Below, piece after piece: positions 1-8,748 of a DNA stretch of 8,748 nt (position 1 is the stretch's first letter; each line of letters starts with the position of its first letter). Source of the stretch: a virus (lineage: Duplodnaviria; Heunggongvirae; Uroviricota; Caudoviricetes). Both the position numbers and the translations under genes were made by a program. The notes beneath the pieces were generated by a model. It did not search any database. It was not told the DNA's origin and worked only from the letters and a program-made list of their open reading frames with translations. The stretch lies in IMG/VR virus record IMGVR_UViG_2541047780_000006; one strand, written 5' to 3'.

Positions 1-249
1 ATGCGTATTGAAATCTGCATAGCCAAAGAAAAAATGACTAAAATGCCAACCGGTGCTGTGGATGCGTTAAAGGAAGAATTAACCCGACGCATCAGTAAAC
101 GTTATGACGATGTAGAGGTGATCGTAAAAGCCACCAGCAACGATGGCCTTTCTGTTACGCGCACCGCCGATAAAGATTCAGCTAAAACTTTTGTTCAGGA
201 AACTCTGAAAGATACCTGGGAGTCTGCTGACGAGTGGTTTGTTCACTAA
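1..249 (+). CDS. DinI-family protein (DinI-like RecA/SOS modulator), 82 aa
   Basis: The 82-aa ORF aligns over its full length with E. coli DinI (81 aa) as recalled from memory: MRIE..IAK N-terminus and the conserved acidic C-terminal tail [10 protein letters not shown]. It diverges from chromosomal DinI, so it is a DinI-like paralog rather than dinI itself. The ATG is at window position 1, so the promoter and any LexA box are not visible. Confidence 0.8.
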
Positions 250-316
250 TTAGCACGTAAAATCAGTAACAGCTGGAAATCATTCAATACTCGCACTATC
301 GAAAGTTAACCAGCCA

Positions 317-362
317 GCCGCAGTATCCTGTCATGACAAGTTACTGCGGCTTTTTACTTTTT
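317..362 (+). terminator. Rho-independent terminator downstream of the dinI-like gene
   Basis: Inverted repeat GCCGCAGTA (317-325) / TACTGCGGC (342-350) with a short inner palindrome in the loop, followed directly by TTTTTACTTTTT (351-362) on the plus strand. It lies about 65 bp after the stop at 247-249. Confidence 0.6.
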
Positions 363-366
363 ATAT

Positions 367-609
367 TTAACGGATCAACATCCAGATCAGCAGACACGCC
401 ACCACCGGCACAGCAAAATCCATCAGGCTTGCCACATCCCATGCACGTGGATCAAAACCGCCCCACCACGGCATGTTAATCCGCTTGCCATGCCCGAACA
501 TTTCAATCCAGCGATATTCTGCCTGGGTGTGTTCACGCGCAATGAAGAACGTACAACCGGCTATCGCCCCGTAAGCCCAGTTTCCGGTAAAAAGACCAGC
601 CAGTAGGTT
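367..609 (-). pseudogene. Orphan 3-prime gene fragment (C-terminal piece of a hydrophobic, Trp-rich protein); possible displaced host gene end at the prophage boundary
   Basis: Minus-strand frame open for 80 codons between an in-frame TGA (rc of 610-612) and a TAA (rc of 367-369). It has no start codon until a Met 44 codons from the end and no RBS. Hand translation: NLLAGLFTGNWAYGAIAGCTFFIAREHTQAEYRWIEMFGHGKRINMPWWGGFDPRAWDVASLMDFAVPVVACLLIWMLIR. Absent from the ORF track, presumably because the Met-initiated part is short. I could not identify the parent gene. Confidence 0.3.
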
Positions 610-644
610 TCAAAAAACACAATAACCAATTGTATTTGAAGCAA

Positions 645-775
645 AAGACAAGACTTTGAGATGTTTTTTTGTACCTTTTTTTTATGTTTTTAACTGTCTG
701 ATTTTATTGAAATCTTTTTTAGTTTTGCAGAAGGAATTTTTTACTTGATTGTAACTTTTTCGTTTTTTTGGGGCT
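645..775. other. Very AT-rich spacer with a dense series of T-tracts (A-tracts on the minus strand); candidate curved DNA, att arm or H-NS/IHF-binding region
   Basis: Nine runs of 4-8 T within about 105 bp (664-670, 676-683, 687-691, 702-705, 715-720, 723-726, 737-742, 756-760, 763-769). No ORF on either strand. Spacing is irregular (7-18 bp), so strict helical phasing is not demonstrated. Confidence 0.3.
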
Positions 776-912
776 AATTGACGCGCAATGCTGGGCGGGG
801 AGCGCACAGCCAAAAAAACCGAAATTGACCGCTAATTACTGCCAATCATCATCGCTCTGATTGAGCGTAAATCATTCAGGTTATTCAGTTCTTCCTTCTG
901 CTCTCGCTGACG

Positions 913-1083
913 TCAATAAATCCCATCATTGCGATCAACCTCATCCTTAACCATTGATGCGAGCAGTTCTTCCAGTTTCTGCGCTGACAGCTTTACCTGG
1001 TGATCTTCAGCATCTTCCCGGGCTATTGTGGTTCGCGCAGTGGCTGATTTTGCTGACATCACCACAGGGGGCAGACGGACCAT
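913..1083 (-). CDS. Hypothetical small acidic protein, 56 aa (MVRLPPVVMSAKSATARTTIAREDAEDHQVKLSAQKLEELLASMVKDEVDRNDGIY)
   Basis: ATG at rc 1081-1083 is preceded by GGAGG about 10 nt upstream (rc of 1091-1099); stop is rc of 913-915. The ORF track shows a 93-aa version starting at 1194, but that N-terminal extension runs through the degenerate hairpin of repeat copy A and has no RBS, so the shorter form is preferred. No recognisable family. Confidence 0.35.
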   Translation of the reverse strand: MVRLPPVVMSAKSATARTTIAREDAEDHQVKLSAQKLEELLASMVKDEVDRNDGIY

Positions 1084-1147
1084 TGAACCATGGCCTCCGG
1101 AACAAATAAGGGCAAAAATAACAACCACTATCGAAAGCTCACAAACT

Positions 1148-1363
1148 AACCGCAGCACGTTCCTGCATACGACGTATCTGCGGCATAATCCCAATGATTA
1201 CTCCCTGACAGGATTTGCAGGCCACTCAATATCAGGTGCAGTTGATGTATCAACACGATTCAACAATACCCGATATTTATTCCATGCCTCCAGCAACGAT
1301 CTTTCTTCCTCCGTTGCGATTTCCAGATCTACAGCATCCTGCAGTGGCGCAATATACTCACTG
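1148..1363. repeat. Direct repeat copy A (~216 bp): tfa 3-prime end plus a degenerate downstream hairpin
   Basis: Manual alignment of 1148-1363 with 2198-2412 gives about 87% identity, with one indel inside the hairpin. Flanking sequence is unrelated on both sides. The hairpin CCGCAGCACGT...ACGTATCTGCGG (1150-1183) is an imperfect version of the perfect palindrome in copy B. Confidence 0.85.
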
Positions 1364-1467
1364 AATTCCTGGATGTAGAACTGTGTGGTGACGGTCTTCC
1401 AGCCATTCGGCTCCTGCTGTATCGAAGCATACCAGGCTATTTCAATATCGCTATGCTGCGGCAGCAT
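1198..1467 (-). CDS. Short tail fibre assembly protein paralog, 89 aa (unique 36-aa N-terminus fused to the conserved Tfa C-terminal ~53 aa; tfaX-like)
   Basis: The C-terminal 53 aa ([53 protein letters not shown]) are near-identical to the C-terminus of the full Tfa at 2247-2831. The N-terminal 36 aa ([36 protein letters not shown]) are unrelated to Tfa. A good RBS, AAGGGG, sits 4 nt before the ATG (rc of 1472-1477). It could be a functional short chaperone or a recombination remnant. Confidence 0.6.
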
Positions 1468-1523
1468 TTAACCCCTTGTAATTCATCGCCATAATTGATT
1501 TAATTCACAAATAAAACTATAAC

Positions 1524-2192
1524 ATGGTGAAATCAATGAAAAAAAACACAGATGATGGGGCTAAAATTTACACACCACTTACCCTAAAGCTTTATGACTG
1601 GTGGGTTTTGGGAGTATCAAATCGGCTTGCATGGGGATGTCCTACAAAGGAACACCTTCTTCCACACTTTCTGGAACATGTAGGTAACAACCATCTGGAT
1701 ATTGGTGTTGGAACTGGGTTTTACCTTACTCACGTACCTGAGAGTAGTCTGATATCTTTAATGGATTTGAACGAAGCTAGCCTGAACGCGGCATCTACAA
1801 GGGCTGGGGAATCAAAAATTAAACATAAAATTAGCCATGATGTTTTTGAACCTTATCCCGCGGCGTTACATGGTCAATTTGATTCCATTTCCATGTTTTA
1901 CCTTCTTCACTGCCTGCCTGGAAATATATCTACAAAAAGCTGTGTAATACGCAATGCGGCGCAGGCCTTAACTGACGATGGAACTCTATACGGAGCCACA
2001 ATTCTTGGCGATGGAGTTGTGCACAATAGCTTCGGTCAAAAACTGATGCGCATTTACAATCAGAAAGGCATCTTTTCAAACACAAAAGATTCCGAAGAAG
2101 GCTTAACACATATACTCTCAGAGCATTTCGAGAATGTTAAAACCAAGGTTCAAGGTACTGTAGTAATGTTTTCCGCTTCAGGGAAAAAATAG
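1524..2192 (+). CDS. ybcY: Class I (Rossmann-fold) SAM-dependent methyltransferase, 222 aa; prophage cargo gene, YbcY-like
   Basis: Motif I HLDIGVGTGFY, an acidic residue at the end of beta-2 (LMDLNE), motif II FDSISMFYLLHCLP and motif III LTDDGTLYGATIL. No DPPY/NPPY or PCQ motif, so it is not a DNA methyltransferase. Visibly more AT-rich than the flanking phage genes and on the opposite strand. The symbol is assigned from my recollection that DLP12 of E. coli K-12 has the order tfaD-ybcY-tfaX, with ybcY a putative SAM methyltransferase; this was not verified by alignment. An alternative start at ATG 1536 (MKKNTDD...) has a GGTGA Shine-Dalgarno 5 nt upstream and may be the true start. Confidence 0.75.
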   Translation: MVKSMKKNTDDGAKIYTPLTLKLYDWWVLGVSNRLAWGCPTKEHLLPHFLEHVGNNHLDIGVGTGFYLTHVPESSLISLMDLNEASLNAASTRAGESKIKHKISHDVFEPYPAALHGQFDSISMFYLLHCLPGNISTKSCVIRNAAQALTDDGTLYGATILGDGVVHNSFGQKLMRIYNQKGIFSNTKDSEEGLTHILSEHFENVKTKVQGTVVMFSASGKK

Positions 2193-2197
2193 CATCC

Positions 2198-2412
2198 AAC
2201 CGCAGCACGTTCTTGCTTAAGACGTGCTGCGGCATAATCCCAATGATTACTCCCTGACAGGGTTCGTAGGCCACTCAATATCAGGTGCAGTTGATGTATC
2301 AACACGGTTCAGCAACACCCGATACTTTTTCCAGGCTTCCAGCAATGAGGTTTCTTCCTCCGTTGCAATTTCCAGATCTGCAGCATCCTGAAGCGGCGCA
2401 ATATGCTCACTG
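2198..2412. repeat. Direct repeat copy B (~215 bp): authentic tfa 3-prime end plus downstream hairpin
   Basis: Partner of 1148-1363 at about 87% identity. Covers the last ~55 codons of tfa and about 50 bp of 3-prime flank, including the perfect palindrome at 2200-2232. Confidence 0.85.
2200..2232 (-). terminator. Perfect 11-bp-stem palindromic hairpin between the convergent tfa and methyltransferase genes; probable terminator
   Basis: CCGCAGCACGT (2200-2210), loop TCTTGCTTAAG, ACGTGCTGCGG (2222-2232). On the minus strand it lies 15 nt after the tfa stop, with a T-run (rc of 2184-2189) about 10 nt after the stem. On the plus strand it lies 8 nt after the methyltransferase stop but has no T-run. 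Confidence 0.45.
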
Positions 2413-2831
2413 GCTACCTGCATCAGGTTGTTTTTTGTTTCTTCCGCCTCCCGGATCCGGAACAGTTTTTCTGCTTCCGTATCCTTCACCCAGGCTGTGC
2501 CGTTCCACTTCTGAAACTCCCCTTCCGGCGATAACCAGGTAACATTTTCCGGTAACGGACCGAGTTCAGAAATAAATAACTCGTCCCCTGACGCTACGTC
2601 ATAAACCGTTTTCCCCCGATGGTCTTCAACGAGATGCCACGATGCCTCATCACTGTTGAAAACAGCCACAAAGCCAGCAGGAATATCTGGTGGTGCAATA
2701 TCGGTACTGTTTGCTGGCAGACCTGTATGAGGCGGAATATATGCGTCACCTTCACCAATAAATTCATTAGTTCCGGCCAGCAGATTATAAATTTTTATGG
2801 TCCGTGCTTGTTCACTCATTCTGAATGCCAT
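2247..2831 (-). CDS. tfa: Tail fibre assembly protein Tfa, 194 aa
   Basis: Same length and near-identical sequence to phage lambda Tfa as I recall it ([53 protein letters not shown]...). The start ATG overlaps the stf stop in TAATG. GAGG Shine-Dalgarno lies 8 nt upstream. Confidence 0.95.
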
Positions 2832-5800
2832 TATGCAAGCCTCACAATATAGTTAAATGCGATGTTTTTGACGGTGTTTTCCGCGTTACCCGCAGCGTTA
2901 ACGGTGATGGTGTGTCCATGTGAACCAATCGCAACGGAGTGCGTATGCGCACCAATACCTACAGTATGTGCATGTGCGCCAGAACTTGCTGCAGTACCAG
3001 ACAGCGAGTGGGTATGAGCACCTGCTGACTGTGTCTGAATACGTTGATAATACGATCTATAGGAAGAAGTCTCCGGGCTTACTTGATACTGTGAATTCTG
3101 GACATAAGTGAACCCACCGCCATCATAAAATGCTAACGCAGAACCGCCGCCTCCTGGCCAACGAATACCATTACCATGAGTATGAACACCGGCAGACCCC
3201 GTAGAGCCACTCAGACTGTGCGTATGCGCCCCAGTGTTATTCGTGGATTTAGTGCCGTAATCAAACGACGATGTGGTTTTCGTCCCCAAATCCGTACTGG
3301 ATGCGCTGGCGCTGTGGGTGTGCGATTTTATGCCGTCCTGTTCCTGAGACAATACGGCCCGGCCACTGGCGGGTTTGCCCTTGATTGTCCAGCCGCGCAT
3401 ATCTGGAATAACACCTGAAGGATAGGCAATAGCCAGTTTCGGATATGCTGCCTTATCAAACGTCTGCCCCTGCATGATTGCATAACCTGCAGGTGGTGTA
3501 TCTGATGGCCACGGCAGCGGAACACCTGGCGGAAACGCTTCAATATTTGCCGAGCCGTCAAATTTTACGCCGTTAATTGTCCTTGCAGTTTGCAATTTGG
3601 TTGCTGTGCTTGCATTACCCGATAAAGATCCAGTGATACCACCACTCGCGTTTAATTTAGTTGCAATTGTAACATTGCCAGTATGGTTACTAATTATAAA
3701 CGGCCTTAAGCTATTGTGCGTACCAAGACTGTTACCCGAATCTGTCAACATAAAATATGTGTTTGATCCATCATTTCGGATAAAGAATCCATAGTTGCCA
3801 TAGGCAATACGCAGACCATTTGCTGACCTTGAAATAACCTCACCAGCAGCAGTTAAACCACCTGAAAGAGTCCCTCCAGTTAATGCCAATGCCCCAATAT
3901 TTGAAGGGGTCAATGTGATATTTGCACTACCATCAAATGACACACCGTTAATCGTTCTGGCTGCCTGAAGTTTCGTGGCGGTCGCAGCATTACCTGTAGT
4001 GTTTTGATTACCGGTAGCGTTGACTCCAGGCAAGTTGATATCTGCCGATCCATCAAATGCCACGCCCCCAATCTTACGTGCTGTCTTGATCTTGGTCGCA
4101 GTATCTGCGTTTCCGGTCAAATTACCAGTAACACTACCACCAACTTTTAGTCCATTACCGATGGACACCAACCCTGATCTTAAGTTTATAGAGAATGGTC
4201 TTAATGAACCGATGTCTCCATTTTCCCCCTCCCCTTCATTAGTCGGAATAAGATGAAGATGATCTTCGGAACGCCTAAAAATAAGGCCAAAGGCTTGGTT
4301 GAATATTCGAAGAGCATTTATCGTGCTGATTTTTAACTGCCCTCCCATTGTGTCGCCAGTTTTTTGAACTGAACTATCTTTAACAGTTTTAACTGCCTTT
4401 GGCGTTGCCGCCAGCTTTTCACTGGTGCTGTTTGTTGCACTGCTGAGCTGTACTATCCCCTTTTTCGTCGTGCTCGCATCCTCCAGCGCCACGGCGGATG
4501 CAATATCCTCTGCCCGTTTTGCTGCTGTCTCGGCGCGCGTTGCCGCGGATTCAGCAGCAACTTTGCTCTGAGATGCAGCCGTCGCACTGCCTGCCGCCTC
4601 TGATGCTTTCGTTGTTGCTGTCGTGGCACTACCTTTCGCTGCTGACGCTTGTCTGGTCGCCTCATCTTTTGAAGCAGACGCAGATGATGCCGATGACGCC
4701 GCTGAACTGGCTGACGATGCGGCTGCCGCCTTAGAGGAAGCAGCATTGTCTGCTGAAGTCTTTGCATTTGTTTCAGAGGTTTTTGCTGCAGAAGCAGACC
4801 TCGCTGCTGCAGTGGCTTGCTCAGTGGCTTTGCCAGCCTTCGTTGTGGCTGTTGAAGCGGATGATGCGGCGCTTTCTGCCGATTTTCCGGCGGCGGTGGC
4901 ACTGGCTGAGGCCTGCCCGGCACTTGTTGACGCGGCACTGGCAGATAATGCAGCCGCTGTTTTTGAACCTGCCGCAGCTGAGGCGCTCTGTCCCGCTGCT
5001 GTTTCAGAAGACTTAGCGTTCGTCTCGGACGTTTTTGCCGCCTTCGCGGAATTTCCTGCCGCCGTTGCCGAGGAAGCTGCACTACTGGCACTTGATGATG
5101 CATTCGTTTCTGAAGATTTCGCTGCCTCTTTTGAGGCCGCCGCACCCCGTGCCGAGGTGGCAGCTTCTGACGCCTTCGTGGTCGCTGTGGATGCAGAAGT
5201 GGCTGCCGATTTTTGTGATGCTGCGGCATTCGTTTCTGACGTTTTCGCGGCACTGGCGCTGGTAGCTGCCGCGCTTTTTGATGACTCTGCAGCAGCAGCA
5301 CTTTTTGCTGCTTCACGGGCCTTTGTCGATGCCGTTCCTGCGCTGGAAGACGCTGACTGAGCCGACGACGCGGCCTGTCCGGCTGACGTGCTGGCGGCAC
5401 GTGCTGAGGCTGCAGCATCGGTTGCATGAGTTGCCGCCTCGCTGGCTGATGCACTGGCATCGCTGGCTGATTTTTTCGCGGCTGCCGTATTCTGTGCAAC
5501 CGCGGAGGCGTTACGTGACACCTCTTCCACCATCTGCTCAAAGCGGCGCAGTGCCTCCGGTCGGACATCATCCTCCGTCATGGCACCGAGAAAATCATTC
5601 AGCGTACCTGGTCTGGAACCTTCATAGACGGTAATGGTCCCGGCATGTGAAGGCGGAAAATCTTCAACCAGCAGGGTGACGCTGTACTGGCCATACTCAA
5701 CATCCATGCTGTAACGCCCGGCTTCATCCGGATTTTCAGAGGCCACCGTGTTCACCACCACCGTGCTGCTGGTCCGTCTGGCCTTCAGCACAATGGTGCA

Positions 5801-5857
5801 GTTCTGTACTGGTTTTCCTGTGCCATCTTTAAGCACGCCAGAAATTTTTACTGTCAT
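2831..5857 (-). CDS. stf: Side tail fibre protein Stf, 1008 aa, mosaic
   Basis: The N-terminal ~115 aa ([22 protein letters not shown]...) and the C-terminal ~250 aa (PWPSD...[32 protein letters not shown]...GAHTHSLSG...[29 protein letters not shown]) match lambda Stf as recalled. In between are a long Ala/Ser/Thr-rich repeat region and three copies of the phage tail-fibre repeat (G-N-A-x-T-A-T-K-[IL]-x-x-A-R-x-I-x-G-V-x-F-D-G-S-A-[DN]-I). Confidence 0.93.
4420..5515. repeat. Intragenic degenerate tandem repeats (Ala/Ser/Thr-rich shaft of Stf; about 42-bp, 14-residue periodicity)
   Basis: The protein motif K(T/S)SETNA recurs at spacings of 42, 28 and 7 residues. The corresponding DNA motif GC(A)TTYGTTTCWGANGNTTTYGC recurs near 4764, 5016, 5101 and 5227. 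The region is nearly stop-free in several frames, which generates long shadow ORFs on both strands. Confidence 0.6.
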
Positions 5858-5870
5858 ACTTTTCCACCAA

Positions 5871-5905
5871 TAAAAAAAGCCCGCAGCAGTGACGCCACGG
5901 GCTTC
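5871..5905 (-). terminator. Candidate rho-independent terminator between lom and stf
   Basis: Minus-strand RNA would read AAGCCCG, a 14-nt loop, CGGGCUU, then a U-tract (rc of the A-run 5872-5878). It ends about 14 nt before the stf ATG, with a GGTGGA Shine-Dalgarno between. The loop is long, so strength is uncertain. Confidence 0.45.
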
Positions 5906-6008
5906 AGGACAGTGTAACTTTACGTTTCCTCAAACGCAGTTCACCCCATAAGGCGGATGAACCTGCGTATCATAACAATATTTACAGAAGATAAATCGGC
6001 GTCTGTTG

Positions 6009-6608
6009 TCAGAAACGGTATCCGATACCAACAATAAATGCATCCGTTCGCCAGTCGCCACTGCCGGAGCCTTCATAAGCAATATCAATGGCCACGGATT
6101 CGGTCGGGTTAAACTGCACGCCAGCCCCCCACGCCAGAGACGTGTTGCTGTGGCGACCGTCATCACTTCCGGTCAGCACATCGTGCGTTTTCCCCTTGTT
6201 GTCAGTTACGCGGAGATAATCCCCGGAGAAAGTCGACACACGGCTGTAAGCCACACCCACCATCGCATACGCGCTGAACCATTCATTCACGCGTACAGAC
6301 GGCCCCGCCATCACGCTGAACCAGCGGTTACGCACGGAATCTTCATGCCAGCGGGTATCGCTGTAATGCGTTTTTTGCTCATCTTTGGCATTGGCATAAC
6401 TGAATGACGTCACCAGCCCCAGCGTGTCCGTAAACTCATAACGGTATTTCACGTTAATCCCGTTCAGATCATCGCTGCCAGGCATATCAGTATGGGTCTG
6501 AAGATACCCGGCGCTTAGTGTGGACTGATGCTCTGCTGCGCTCGCTGGCGTACCAGCGGCAACCAGCCAGACTACTGCGGACAGAATAACAGCACATAAT
6601 TTACGCAT
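6009..6608 (-). CDS. lom: Outer membrane protein Lom (Ail/Lom/OmpX/PagC family 8-strand beta-barrel), 199 aa
   Basis: Signal peptide MRKLCAVILSAVVWLVAAGTPASA. The C-terminus IAYEGSGSGDWRTDAFIVGIGYRF matches lambda Lom. GAGAGG Shine-Dalgarno lies 6 nt upstream. Position between J and stf is as in lambda. Confidence 0.95.
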   Translation of the reverse strand: MRKLCAVILSAVVWLVAAGTPASAAEHQSTLSAGYLQTHTDMPGSDDLNGINVKYRYEFTDTLGLVTSFSYANAKDEQKTHYSDTRWHEDSVRNRWFSVMAGPSVRVNEWFSAYAMVGVAYSRVSTFSGDYLRVTDNKGKTHDVLTGSDDGRHSNTSLAWGAGVQFNPTESVAIDIAYEGSGSGDWRTDAFIVGIGYRF

Positions 6609-6632
6609 AATTACCTCTCGCTTTTCTGCAAT

Positions 6633-6656
6633 AAAAAAGGCGCCATTTCTGGCGCC
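6633..6656 (-). terminator. Rho-independent terminator between J and lom
   Basis: Minus-strand RNA reads GGCGCCA, loop GAAA, UGGCGCC, followed immediately by UUUUUU (rc of 6633-6638). It lies about 20 nt after the J stop and about 25 nt before the lom start. Confidence 0.6.
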
Positions 6657-6675
6657 CGTATTGGGGTTATAAAAT

Positions 6676-8748
6676 TCAGCTAATCGTGATGCCTGCAGTG
6701 GCTTTCTTCATCACAACAACCAGCAAATCGCTGATACTTGCTGTGGGATACCAGCCATTTACCCACCATGCTGATACAGAAAACTCCAGCGTCATGTGAC
6801 CGCGACCAGCAGGCATATCAATAACACCACTGTAAACCAGCGTATTATCCAGCGCGGTACGGTTATAAATTTCAGCACCGTTTTTCTTCACTATCAGGCG
6901 GCATGACGAATAAGTATCGCTGTTCTCCCGCTCATGTCTGGCACCGCTGAAAGCCACCGCCGGAATAACAATCTGCCGGTTAAACGGCTGATCGTCATAA
7001 ACCCTGACGGTAATGGTTCCTGATGGCCAACGCTTCGGTGCACGGGAGTCACGAGGGAAAGCCTTACCCACTGTTTTAACGAGATCGCCTTCAATCTGGT
7101 TTGCAGACAGTTTCCCTCTGATGACACAGTTCTCGTTAATGGTGACATTATTGAGCGTGCCGGTATTCGCCGTGATGGCTCCACTGATATCCGCATTGCG
7201 GGCTGTCAGCCTGCCATCCGGCGTCAGGGAAAACGTCGGAGGATTGCCGGATGACGTGATGCTCACCGCAAACAGTCGCTTCAGGAACACGTCGTTCATG
7301 AACAGCTGATTCCCCTGCGCCACAAACAGCGGCGTGGTGTTGCCGTTCTCCGGGGTAATCATCGCAATGCGATCGGCCTGCAGCAGAATGTTACTCAGGG
7401 TCTGACCATCAACATCCTCAATCCCCGCGCCAATCCCGGCCACATAGGGAATACCGTTTTTTGTTTTCTGCACCTTCAGCATATACATGGCATTCAGCTC
7501 ATTGCGCGTGTCTGACTGAACCCGCTGGATTTGCTGTATGGTCACGGCCTGGTCACCCAGCTTTTTATCCGTGGTCGAGGTAATTTCACTCCCTTTTTTA
7601 TCCACGTACTGGCGGACCTGTGCTATCTGCCGGGCGTTTTCTGACTGCCCCTGGCTGACAGTCTGTGAGATTTCACTGCTCACCCGGTCCACTTTCTGGC
7701 TCATCTGCGCGATGGCCAGTGTCTGGTCCTCATTCTTTTTCGCAACCAGCTGCGTGAGGCTGTTTTCCGCCTCCCCGATTTTCCGGGTCACTTCTGCGAT
7801 ATCCGTGTCCATCCGCTGACGGATGTCTTCTTCCAGTTGCGTGACCTCCGTACGCAGCGCTGAAGCATCAATGCGCTCTTTCAGTGCCTGACCCAGAAGC
7901 GTCTCATCTATCAGCCCCCGGAAAATTTCCAGATACCCTTCACCATCATTGCTGGGCTGCCCGCTGGCTTCCACAAAAGCAGATTTTCCCACCAGGTTGA
8001 CGCTTCGCACGTAAAACCAGAAATCCGTCCCCGGCTTAATCCGGCTCCCCTGGACAGTCCACTGACTGCCGGACCCCAGATAACGGGCAGATTTTTCCAC
8101 CTGTGCCGTGTTCGTGATGCGTTTTTCTGAGAACCAGAATTCAAACTGTATCGTCGGATCATACACCGCAAGACGCGGGACCGCCGTTATCTGAAAATAC
8201 CCCGGCGTCAGCTCAATGGTGGCGGGTTTTGCAGGTGCGTTAATCCGGAAGGTGGTGGTGGCAGGTTCACCCTGCTGGCCATAACTGTTTATCGCCCGCA
8301 CCGTCAGGGTGTATTCCCCCAGTGGCAGGCCACTGAAACGGTGCTCCGTGTCTGCGGTGATGGCGGTGGTCACCAGTCTGGCATCCGTTCCCTTACCACT
8401 GGTCAGGCGCAGACTGAAGCGCACGCCCTTCACCACCCGCGGCGTGTCCCATTTAGCCTGCGCCAGATACTGGCCGTCAGCTGCGCTCACCTCCACCGTC
8501 AGGTGCTGTACTGCCGGTGGGATGACGCTGTTCAGGGAGCCTGACTGCGGCTCAAAGCGGGCACCGTTATCCACGATGGCTTCTTTTTCCGGTACGTGCT
8601 GCACCGCCGTGATGGCAAAGGTGCCGTCCGTGTTTTCCCGGACGGAGACACAGCGGAACAGGCGACGGCGCAGTGACGGCAGGGAGAGTCCCCACACCCC
8701 GTATGTCTCCACACCATCCGGCAGGGTGCTGACCTGTATCCGGTCCGG
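6676..8748 (-). CDS. J: Tail tip host-specificity protein J (central tail fibre), C-terminal ~690 codons; 5-prime end lies beyond the window
   Basis: The reading frame stays open from the window edge at 8748 (in frame, no stop) down to the TGA at 6676-6678. The GTG start at 8710-8712 reported by the ORF finder is therefore internal. Large protein directly upstream of lom, as in lambda. The C-terminal region is the receptor-binding part in lambda J. Confidence 0.9.

Follow-up and report, generated by a model that had tools for sequence, protein, structure and literature searches.

The stretch of DNA analysed here (the window) comprises 8,748 nucleotides of a virus of the Caudoviricetes (IMG/VR record IMGVR_UViG_2541047780_000006) and carries lambdoid tail genes together with a dinI-like gene at its left end. 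It contains a sharp joint, at 602/603, between two prophages of different integration specificity: to the left lies the end of a lambdoid prophage of the type that integrates in yecE, and to the right the attachment arm and tail-fibre genes of a prophage of the type that integrates in ompW (PPompW). With a probability of roughly 0.6, we interpret 602/603 as a hybrid phage-phage joint resembling a right attachment site (attR), at which a PPompW-type integrase carried its phage arm into a gene of the yecE prophage at a poor secondary site. The original prediction, made from the letters of the window alone, had placed the right boundary of a prophage at 250–1140. A junction of the attachment-site (att) type does lie in this interval, but it joins phage to phage, and the boundary with the chromosome is 262–281 bp to the left of the window.

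The window corresponds to the terminal 8748 bases, read as the reverse complement, of scaffold KE700202.1 (GCA_000458095.1; L011 1–8748 in our numbering of the compared loci), and has zero Ns. To the left of window base 1, this scaffold carries a yecE' remnant at a distance of 262–281 bp, followed by yecD, aspS, nudB, yebC and ruvC, and the yecE 5' remnant terminates in the known yecE att sequence (CCGCCACTTTAACTGC...). From this layout it follows that the junction between prophage and chromosome is outside the window, and that dinI lies within a prophage integrated in yecE. The presence of a DinI-like gene was correctly predicted: it occupies 1–249 on the plus strand and matches PHROG 189 and the Pfam family PF06183 (DinI; E=1e-19, 70.9 bits against a curated cut-off of 24.2). 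The suggestion that it could lie on either side of the att core does not hold, as it is the terminal gene of the outer, yecE-type prophage.

To the left of the joint, the window has close relatives among the 5426 complete E. coli genomes that, together with phage records, were compared by megablast (queries 250–1140, 1–1500 and 1–640). Positions 1–605 are 100% identical to strain E-1246 and about 13 genomes, and to positions 7001–7605 of locus L007 (100%); 176 genomes match over at least 80% of 1–640, and all left-side matches end at 605/606. In E-1246 the gene order is yecD, yecE', dinI, a gene for an intact hypothetical protein of 95 amino acids (aa; hyp95), a 92-aa gene, stf, lom and J, with dinI 262 bp from the yecE' remnant, and dinI and hyp95 are the last genes of the yecE prophage. 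The same two genes, with hyp95 again intact, are located between the tail fibre gene and int in phages mEp460 and PhiR40_1. By alignment, both of these phages have the intact hyp95 gene of 288 bp, as do prophages in E-1246, MS8345 and WP8-S17. The full-length protein matches PHROG 1443 (E=4e-57 over positions 1–95 of 97), and a profile search returned zero matches to Pfam families.

These comparisons identify the orphan reading frame at 367–609 on the minus strand. As had been noted, it lacks a start and holds 80 open codons plus a stop; an in-frame TGA (610–612) lies directly upstream, which rules out an alternative hyp95 N-terminal exon in 606–654, and the first start codon in the frame yields just 44 aa (367–501). 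The original prediction took the frame for the displaced 3' end of an integration target gene. It is indeed the 3' part of an interrupted gene, but, judged by its sequence, 367–605 is codons 17–95 of the phage gene of PHROG 1443, which encodes a membrane-like protein, and not of a host gene. Accordingly, the search of E. coli genomes that had been proposed for 250–1140 does recover the interrupted gene intact, but in yecE prophages and not in a chromosomal target. Finding the fragment within phage genomes had been named as evidence against a prophage boundary, and this is in part what we see, the gene being intact in mEp460 and PhiR40_1 beside dinI and int.

The left part of the window thus has the makeup of the right end of yecE-integrating lambdoids (mEp460, PhiR40_1, E-1246 and MS8345): dinI, its terminator and, from the PHROG 1443 gene, the 239 bp at the 3' end follow one another in the same order and are 97–100% identical. 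However, right ends of the mEp460/PhiR40_1 type continue through the intact 95-aa gene into the 92-aa gene and their own tail fibre gene, whereas in the window the 95-aa gene is truncated near codon 17. We also considered whether hyp95 is a recombination hot spot, on the basis of three contigs that start at or near it; these starts are contig breaks at two single-nucleotide polymorphisms (SNPs), and the gene is otherwise intact.

To the right of the joint, the window belongs to a different phage. PPompW, a lambda-like prophage integrated in ompW with an att of 121 bp, has been reported from 44% of the complete genomes of E. coli (Nakamura et al. 2021, PMC8112680). From 603 onward the window is 99–100% identical to hundreds of complete E. 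coli genomes, for example ML35 (99% over 603–6635; locus L001 from 6001). In ML35, this right-arm DNA abuts a 42-codon 3' remnant of ompW followed by yciE, while int and a restored ompW are found at the far end of the prophage. The right arm likewise abuts ompW' and yciE in ECL27977 and seven further loci. The un-integrated phage attachment site (attP) of phage 204576 reads from int through three GGTTTTGCAGAG repeats and a copy of the ompW 3' end, closing in ...CCATGTACCACACTG, to GTAGGTTTC..., which corresponds to the window from 603 onward. Ten other loci read ...CCACACTG followed directly by GTAGGTTTC, one of them being the attP-like joint of tandem prophages; the window alone reads ...CCAGCCA followed by GTAGGTTTC.

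The extent of this arm is delimited by a more distant relative. At a secondary integration site in ycaO (FDAARGOS_1281), the attR has a diverged P arm that aligns to window 603–733 without gaps at about 73% identity, and the homology ceases directly after GTTTTGCAGA(A/G)G, with the arm-type motif conserved. The motif GTTTTGCAGA, a candidate integrase-binding site, occurs in the window as a single exact copy at 722–731 (plus strand); a tandem triplet of it lies between int and the copy of the ompW 3' end, both in the left attachment site (attL) of ML35 and in the attP of phage 204576. Overlapping the arm is the AT-rich stretch from which an att arm had been predicted: 645–775 contains nine T-runs of at least four and seven of at least five, a clustering of T-tracts that is denser than anywhere else in the 8748 bases. 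T accounts for 53% of it, and its G+C content is 26%, against 50.4% for the whole window. Matches to the consensus of IHF with one mismatch occur at 649–661 and 691–703, their window-wide count being not above chance. The phage 204576 attP, the ten loci, the ycaO relative and the GTTTTGCAGA motif together bear out the prediction of an att arm: 603–733 is the P arm of an attP, although that of an ompW-type phage.

Compared with the attR of PPompW, the window has the P arm with its arm-type motif, tail-fibre remnants, methyltransferase gene, tfa, stf, lom and J at 99–100% identity. In ML35, however, the attR also has the core with the overlap CACACTG, the ompW 3' remnant and yciE, whereas the window is without them and has the P arm joined to the truncated gene of another prophage. 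No ompW-like sequence was found in window 1–700.

Several further observations concern PPompW and its surroundings in other genomes. In ML35, an IS200C transposase gene lies between J and lom of the near-identical PPompW (L001 12137–12538; L005 42416–42874), which fits the report that PPompWs are often defective (PMC8112680). GCA_026020055.1 (CP102341.1) has two PPompW right arms about 20 kb apart, one of them with an attP-like joint between the ompW-3' copy and the P arm; IS1 and IS3-family elements are nearby, and the joint indicates tandem or rearranged prophages at ompW. Tandem prophages at ompW would give an attP-like joint in which 603 is preceded, on its left, by the ompW-3' copy and int; such a joint is seen in CP102341.1 and not in the window, so we discount them as its origin. 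In some genomes (L022, L024, L026 and L031) homology to the window stops at 835, and a phage segment of the pRha/Ash type directly beside trpA replaces the P arm, ompW', yciE, yciF and yciG, which gives the same module a different left boundary. Finally, an ORF on a 6-kb Logan contig (P0001) reads through an apparently palindromic joint, at which an inverted chromosomal ompW 3' remnant is fused head-to-head with the phage ompW-3' copy (...GIDIHVP joined to VWYMDID...); either att sites that recombined by inversion or a hairpin in the assembly could account for it.

The discontinuity between the two parents is sharp. It lies at 602/603, with the three bases GTA at 603–605 common to both sides, and in ML35 the attL and attR cease to be identical at the base that corresponds to window 602. 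We located the overlap region of this att system by bracketing it between five secondary attL joints and their unoccupied alleles, the ycaO attR, and the bacterial site (attB), attP, attL and attR at ompW. The five attL joints lie beside the same 376-aa tyrosine integrase (domains Arm-DNA-bind_1 and Phage_integrase) in rlmC, efeO, the 3' end of ygfX, ycaO and a BCCT transporter gene, and the short open reading frames (ORFs) at these sites are the phage ompW-3' copy fused to unrelated N-termini. Several of the five sites occur in multiple assemblies, and some of the phages at secondary sites have the variant core CGGTCTG.

The bracketed overlap is 7 bp long and reads CAGTGTG in gene sense and CACACTG in the orientation of the window, equivalent to window 596–602. 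These positions would be those of the overlap, with the putative cleavage sites placed by sequence comparison. In the window they hold CCAGCCA, that is, the hyp95 target sequence, which is identical to the phage overlap at two of seven bases, while the P arm starts exactly at 603 and GTA/TAC is common on the arm side. The bracketing by five sites therefore puts the break at the overlap edge, within 0–3 bp, of a phage of about 50 kb. The accepted secondary sites match three to five of the seven overlap bases (one of seven for the BCCT site in the indel-free register), so that low identity in the overlap has precedent, and their crossovers likewise map to an edge of the overlap.

The origin that we consider most likely is recombination by a PPompW-type integrase, in which the attP of its phage, or an attR already resident, was paired with a poor secondary site inside the PHROG 1443 gene of a yecE prophage. 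With the strands exchanged on the P-arm side of the 7-bp overlap, the joint would retain the P arm in full, have sequence of the target where the overlap would stand, and carry the displaced 3' end of the interrupted gene. The outcome would be the insertion of a phage into a prophage, for which the predicted reciprocal joint reads ...CCATGTACNNNNNNNGTACCTGCACCGCC. The sequences themselves show what both flanks are, where exactly they break, that the arm is a P arm, which scaffold the window is from, that the chromosome junction is outside it, and that this integrase family uses secondary sites; the part of the integrase in this particular joint is inferred, and the present topology may be nested, collapsed or inverted.

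A number of observations weigh against this proposal. The hyp95 site resembles the core poorly, with two of seven overlap bases and the arm-side TAC/GTA, and an alignment of hyp95 and core shifted by one base (ACCAnnCnG, six to seven of nine), which looks better, would have to lose one G before it could yield the joint that is seen. The joint is present in one draft assembly only: it was not found among the complete genomes of E. coli, GTDB representative genomes, IMG/VR or JGI metagenomes, and no record of the phage collection covers at least 80% of 250–1140. A search of 5.8 billion proteins did not recover the chimeric ORF of the predicted reciprocal, and the reciprocal was not found as DNA in viral and metagenome contigs either. 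In addition, KE700202.1 ends in J and reaches neither int nor the far end of the inner phage.

The strongest competitor dispenses with the integrase: illegitimate recombination at the 3-bp GTA microhomology, or a deletion between two prophages, could have ended at the border of core and P arm by chance. The poor overlap identity, with GTA alone common at the joint, and the lack of a reciprocal product among the sequences searched are what such an event would leave, and lambdoid prophages are highly mosaic, the tail-fibre module occurring in three att contexts (potB, ompW and yecE). However, this explanation needs a random break within 0–3 bp of the overlap edge in an element of about 50 kb, for which we estimate the chance of falling within 3 bp at about 1e-4, and the other mosaic boundaries seen in the window (835, 1220 and 1755) fall elsewhere. 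As the integrase family demonstrably uses poorly matching secondary sites, we consider chance recombination unlikely.

It is less probable still that the integrase joined a resident ompW attR to the pseudo-site in the yecE prophage of the same chromosome, producing an inversion of about 640 kb across the replication terminus instead of a nested insertion. Relative to the gene order of K-12, the window runs forward at yecD-yecE and in reverse at ompW, so such a joint would be an inversion roughly symmetric about the terminus. This is a kind of rearrangement that is tolerated, and the sequence expected at the joint is identical to that of the nested model. However, the predicted partner ORF, with the N-terminus of hyp95 and the chromosomal 3' end of ompW, was not found in the protein search. 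Moreover, inversion alone leaves unexplained a second copy of the J-lom-stf-tfa-methyltransferase region on another scaffold of the same assembly (KE700196.1; L012), which differs from window 1755–8748 at 13 of 6994 bases.

A misjoining of two prophage ends in the draft genome would account for the restriction of the joint to one draft assembly, and is invited by a genome in which the tail-fibre module is present in two or more near-identical copies, and by a scaffold that ends in the repeat. We think it very improbable: the 3 bp common at the joint are far under any overlap or k-mer length of an assembler, which makes an assembly error unlikely, there are zero Ns, and an artefact has no reason to hit the edge of the att overlap exactly. 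The reading of 250–1140 as a boundary between prophage and chromosome, with the 80-codon frame as the displaced 3' end of a chromosomal gene, fits the orientation of the frame, its missing start codon and the adjoining AT-rich arm, but can be set aside, because the fragment is of a PHROG 1443 gene that is intact in mEp460, PhiR40_1 and many prophages and lies with dinI inside yecE prophages, short of the chromosome junction.

Returning to insertion by the PPompW-type integrase, three facts bear on the topology that it may have left: the scaffold stops in J, there is a second copy of the region from J to the methyltransferase gene, and neither version of the reciprocal joint was found. Both KE700202.1 and KE700196.1 terminate inside this repeat. 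Later homologous recombination between the near-identical tail genes might have collapsed the pair into one hybrid prophage at yecE that has the tail-fibre arm of PPompW. Such a two-step swap of tail-fibre arms, with a non-canonical insertion into the yecE prophage followed by a deletion through homologous recombination that leaves a fossil P arm, is a tentative idea that we put forward as possible but doubtful.

Directly 3' of dinI, between two convergent genes, a hairpin at 316–351 (plus strand) has a 10-bp GC-rich stem followed by UUUUU, and folds as RNA with -20.1 kcal/mol (z = -4.7 against shuffles). It is probably the intrinsic terminator of dinI; a simple terminator scanner missed it because of its long loop. 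Immediately to the left of window base 1 (L011 8749–9030), dinI is preceded by a pair of LexA-type boxes (CTGT-N8-ACAG), placed at -59 and -31. The interval from the yecE att to dinI also contains ATGCCCCA three times (-135, -125 and -94), and these repeats are candidates for the arm-type sites to which the yecE-type integrase binds.

On the other side of the joint, the original prediction had regarded 250–1140 as lying beyond the last phage-like gene, which is contradicted both by the phage origin of the orphan frame and by two tail-fibre-assembly pseudogene remnants on the minus strand. The first, at 832–1101, is a DUF4376/tail-fibre-related remnant of the PPompW right arm, annotated by PGAP on the identical stretch of ML35 (L001 6230–6499); a 56-aa ORF at 913–1083 within it matches PHROG 7703 and PHROG 1141 (tail fiber). 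The second, at 1198–1467, is tfa', a C-terminal fragment of a tail fibre assembly gene that matches only positions 75–130 of the Pfam profile Caudo_TAP and is a partial gene in ML35 as well. Between tfa' and tfa, a class I S-adenosylmethionine-dependent methyltransferase is encoded as cargo on the opposite, plus strand (1524–2192; Pfam Methyltransf_12/23/25, PHROG 2132 and the annotation of ML35). It is flanked by direct repeats of the tfa 3' end at 1148–1363 and 2198–2412 (about 89% identical), and looks like a cargo cassette that was inserted together with the tfa 3' duplicate.

The lom-stf-tfa region recognized by the original prediction is present to the right of this, with all genes on the minus strand: tfa at 2247–2831 (Caudo_TAP, E=2e-44, and PGAP name in ML35), the side tail fibre gene stf at 2831–5857 (PGAP name in ML35), lom at 6009–6608 (an ORF supported by gene calls and Pfam on L011), and the C-terminal 690 codons of J at 6676–8748, where the frame runs off the window, that is, the end of the scaffold. 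The exact stf protein is present in seven contigs, in the contexts potB, ompW and yecE, and an identical protein is also found in prophages at potB and ompW of other genomes. Two long ORFs in alternative frames, of 372 aa (4453–5571, minus strand) and 245 aa (4623–5360, plus strand), overlap that part of stf which is repetitive and rich in Ala and Ser; almost certainly they are not genes and owe their existence to the biased, repetitive composition there.

For annotation, the window illustrates that a prophage does not necessarily end where an orphan gene fragment and an att-like arm lie beside tail-fibre genes. A boundary caller guided by these features would truncate the prophage about 900 bp too soon and lose dinI. 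The case also adds an instance of the very common PPompW integrase acting outside ompW, together with five further secondary sites that bracket its 7-bp overlap. If the pair of prophages has collapsed into a hybrid, site-specific recombination can seed the exchange of host-range modules between prophages, and if this took place in two steps as described, the joint would record a route by which lambdoid phages swap whole tail-fibre (host-range) arms across integration specificities, here leaving a yecE-integrating phage with the stf-tfa-methyltransferase arm of the other.

Secondary, or pseudo-attB, integration by tyrosine integrases of the lambda type is classic for lambda in hosts from which attB has been deleted. 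The window resembles it in the break on the phage side at the overlap edge, in a target that is intact in relatives, and in an integrase family found at five other sites. It differs in that the target is inside another prophage, the overlap matches at two of seven bases, and the reciprocal junction is unobserved.

Integration of one prophage into another has been documented between the ompW and yecE phage types, and proceeds there via chromosome-derived copies of attB in the resident prophage (attB-in-PP_1, 2 and 3), which are a 21-bp yecE-like, a 96-bp ykgJ/ecpE-like and a 121-bp ompW-like sequence (PMC8112680). The best-documented of these cases run the opposite way, with yecE-type phages entering PPompW (PMC8112680). 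Our case involves the same two phage types, with one prophage inside or beside another. However, the documented events use genuine attB copies, whereas none is present at or near the hyp95 site or in the window: with up to three mismatches allowed, the window has no match to the 21-bp attB-in-PP_1, and the intact hyp95 region has no significant ompW-like sequence. We therefore reject insertion via a chromosome-derived attB copy and place the case nearer to secondary-site integration of the classical kind, whose target here is another prophage. As both secondary-site integration and prophage-in-prophage integration are already known, the joint described here does not overturn current understanding of either.

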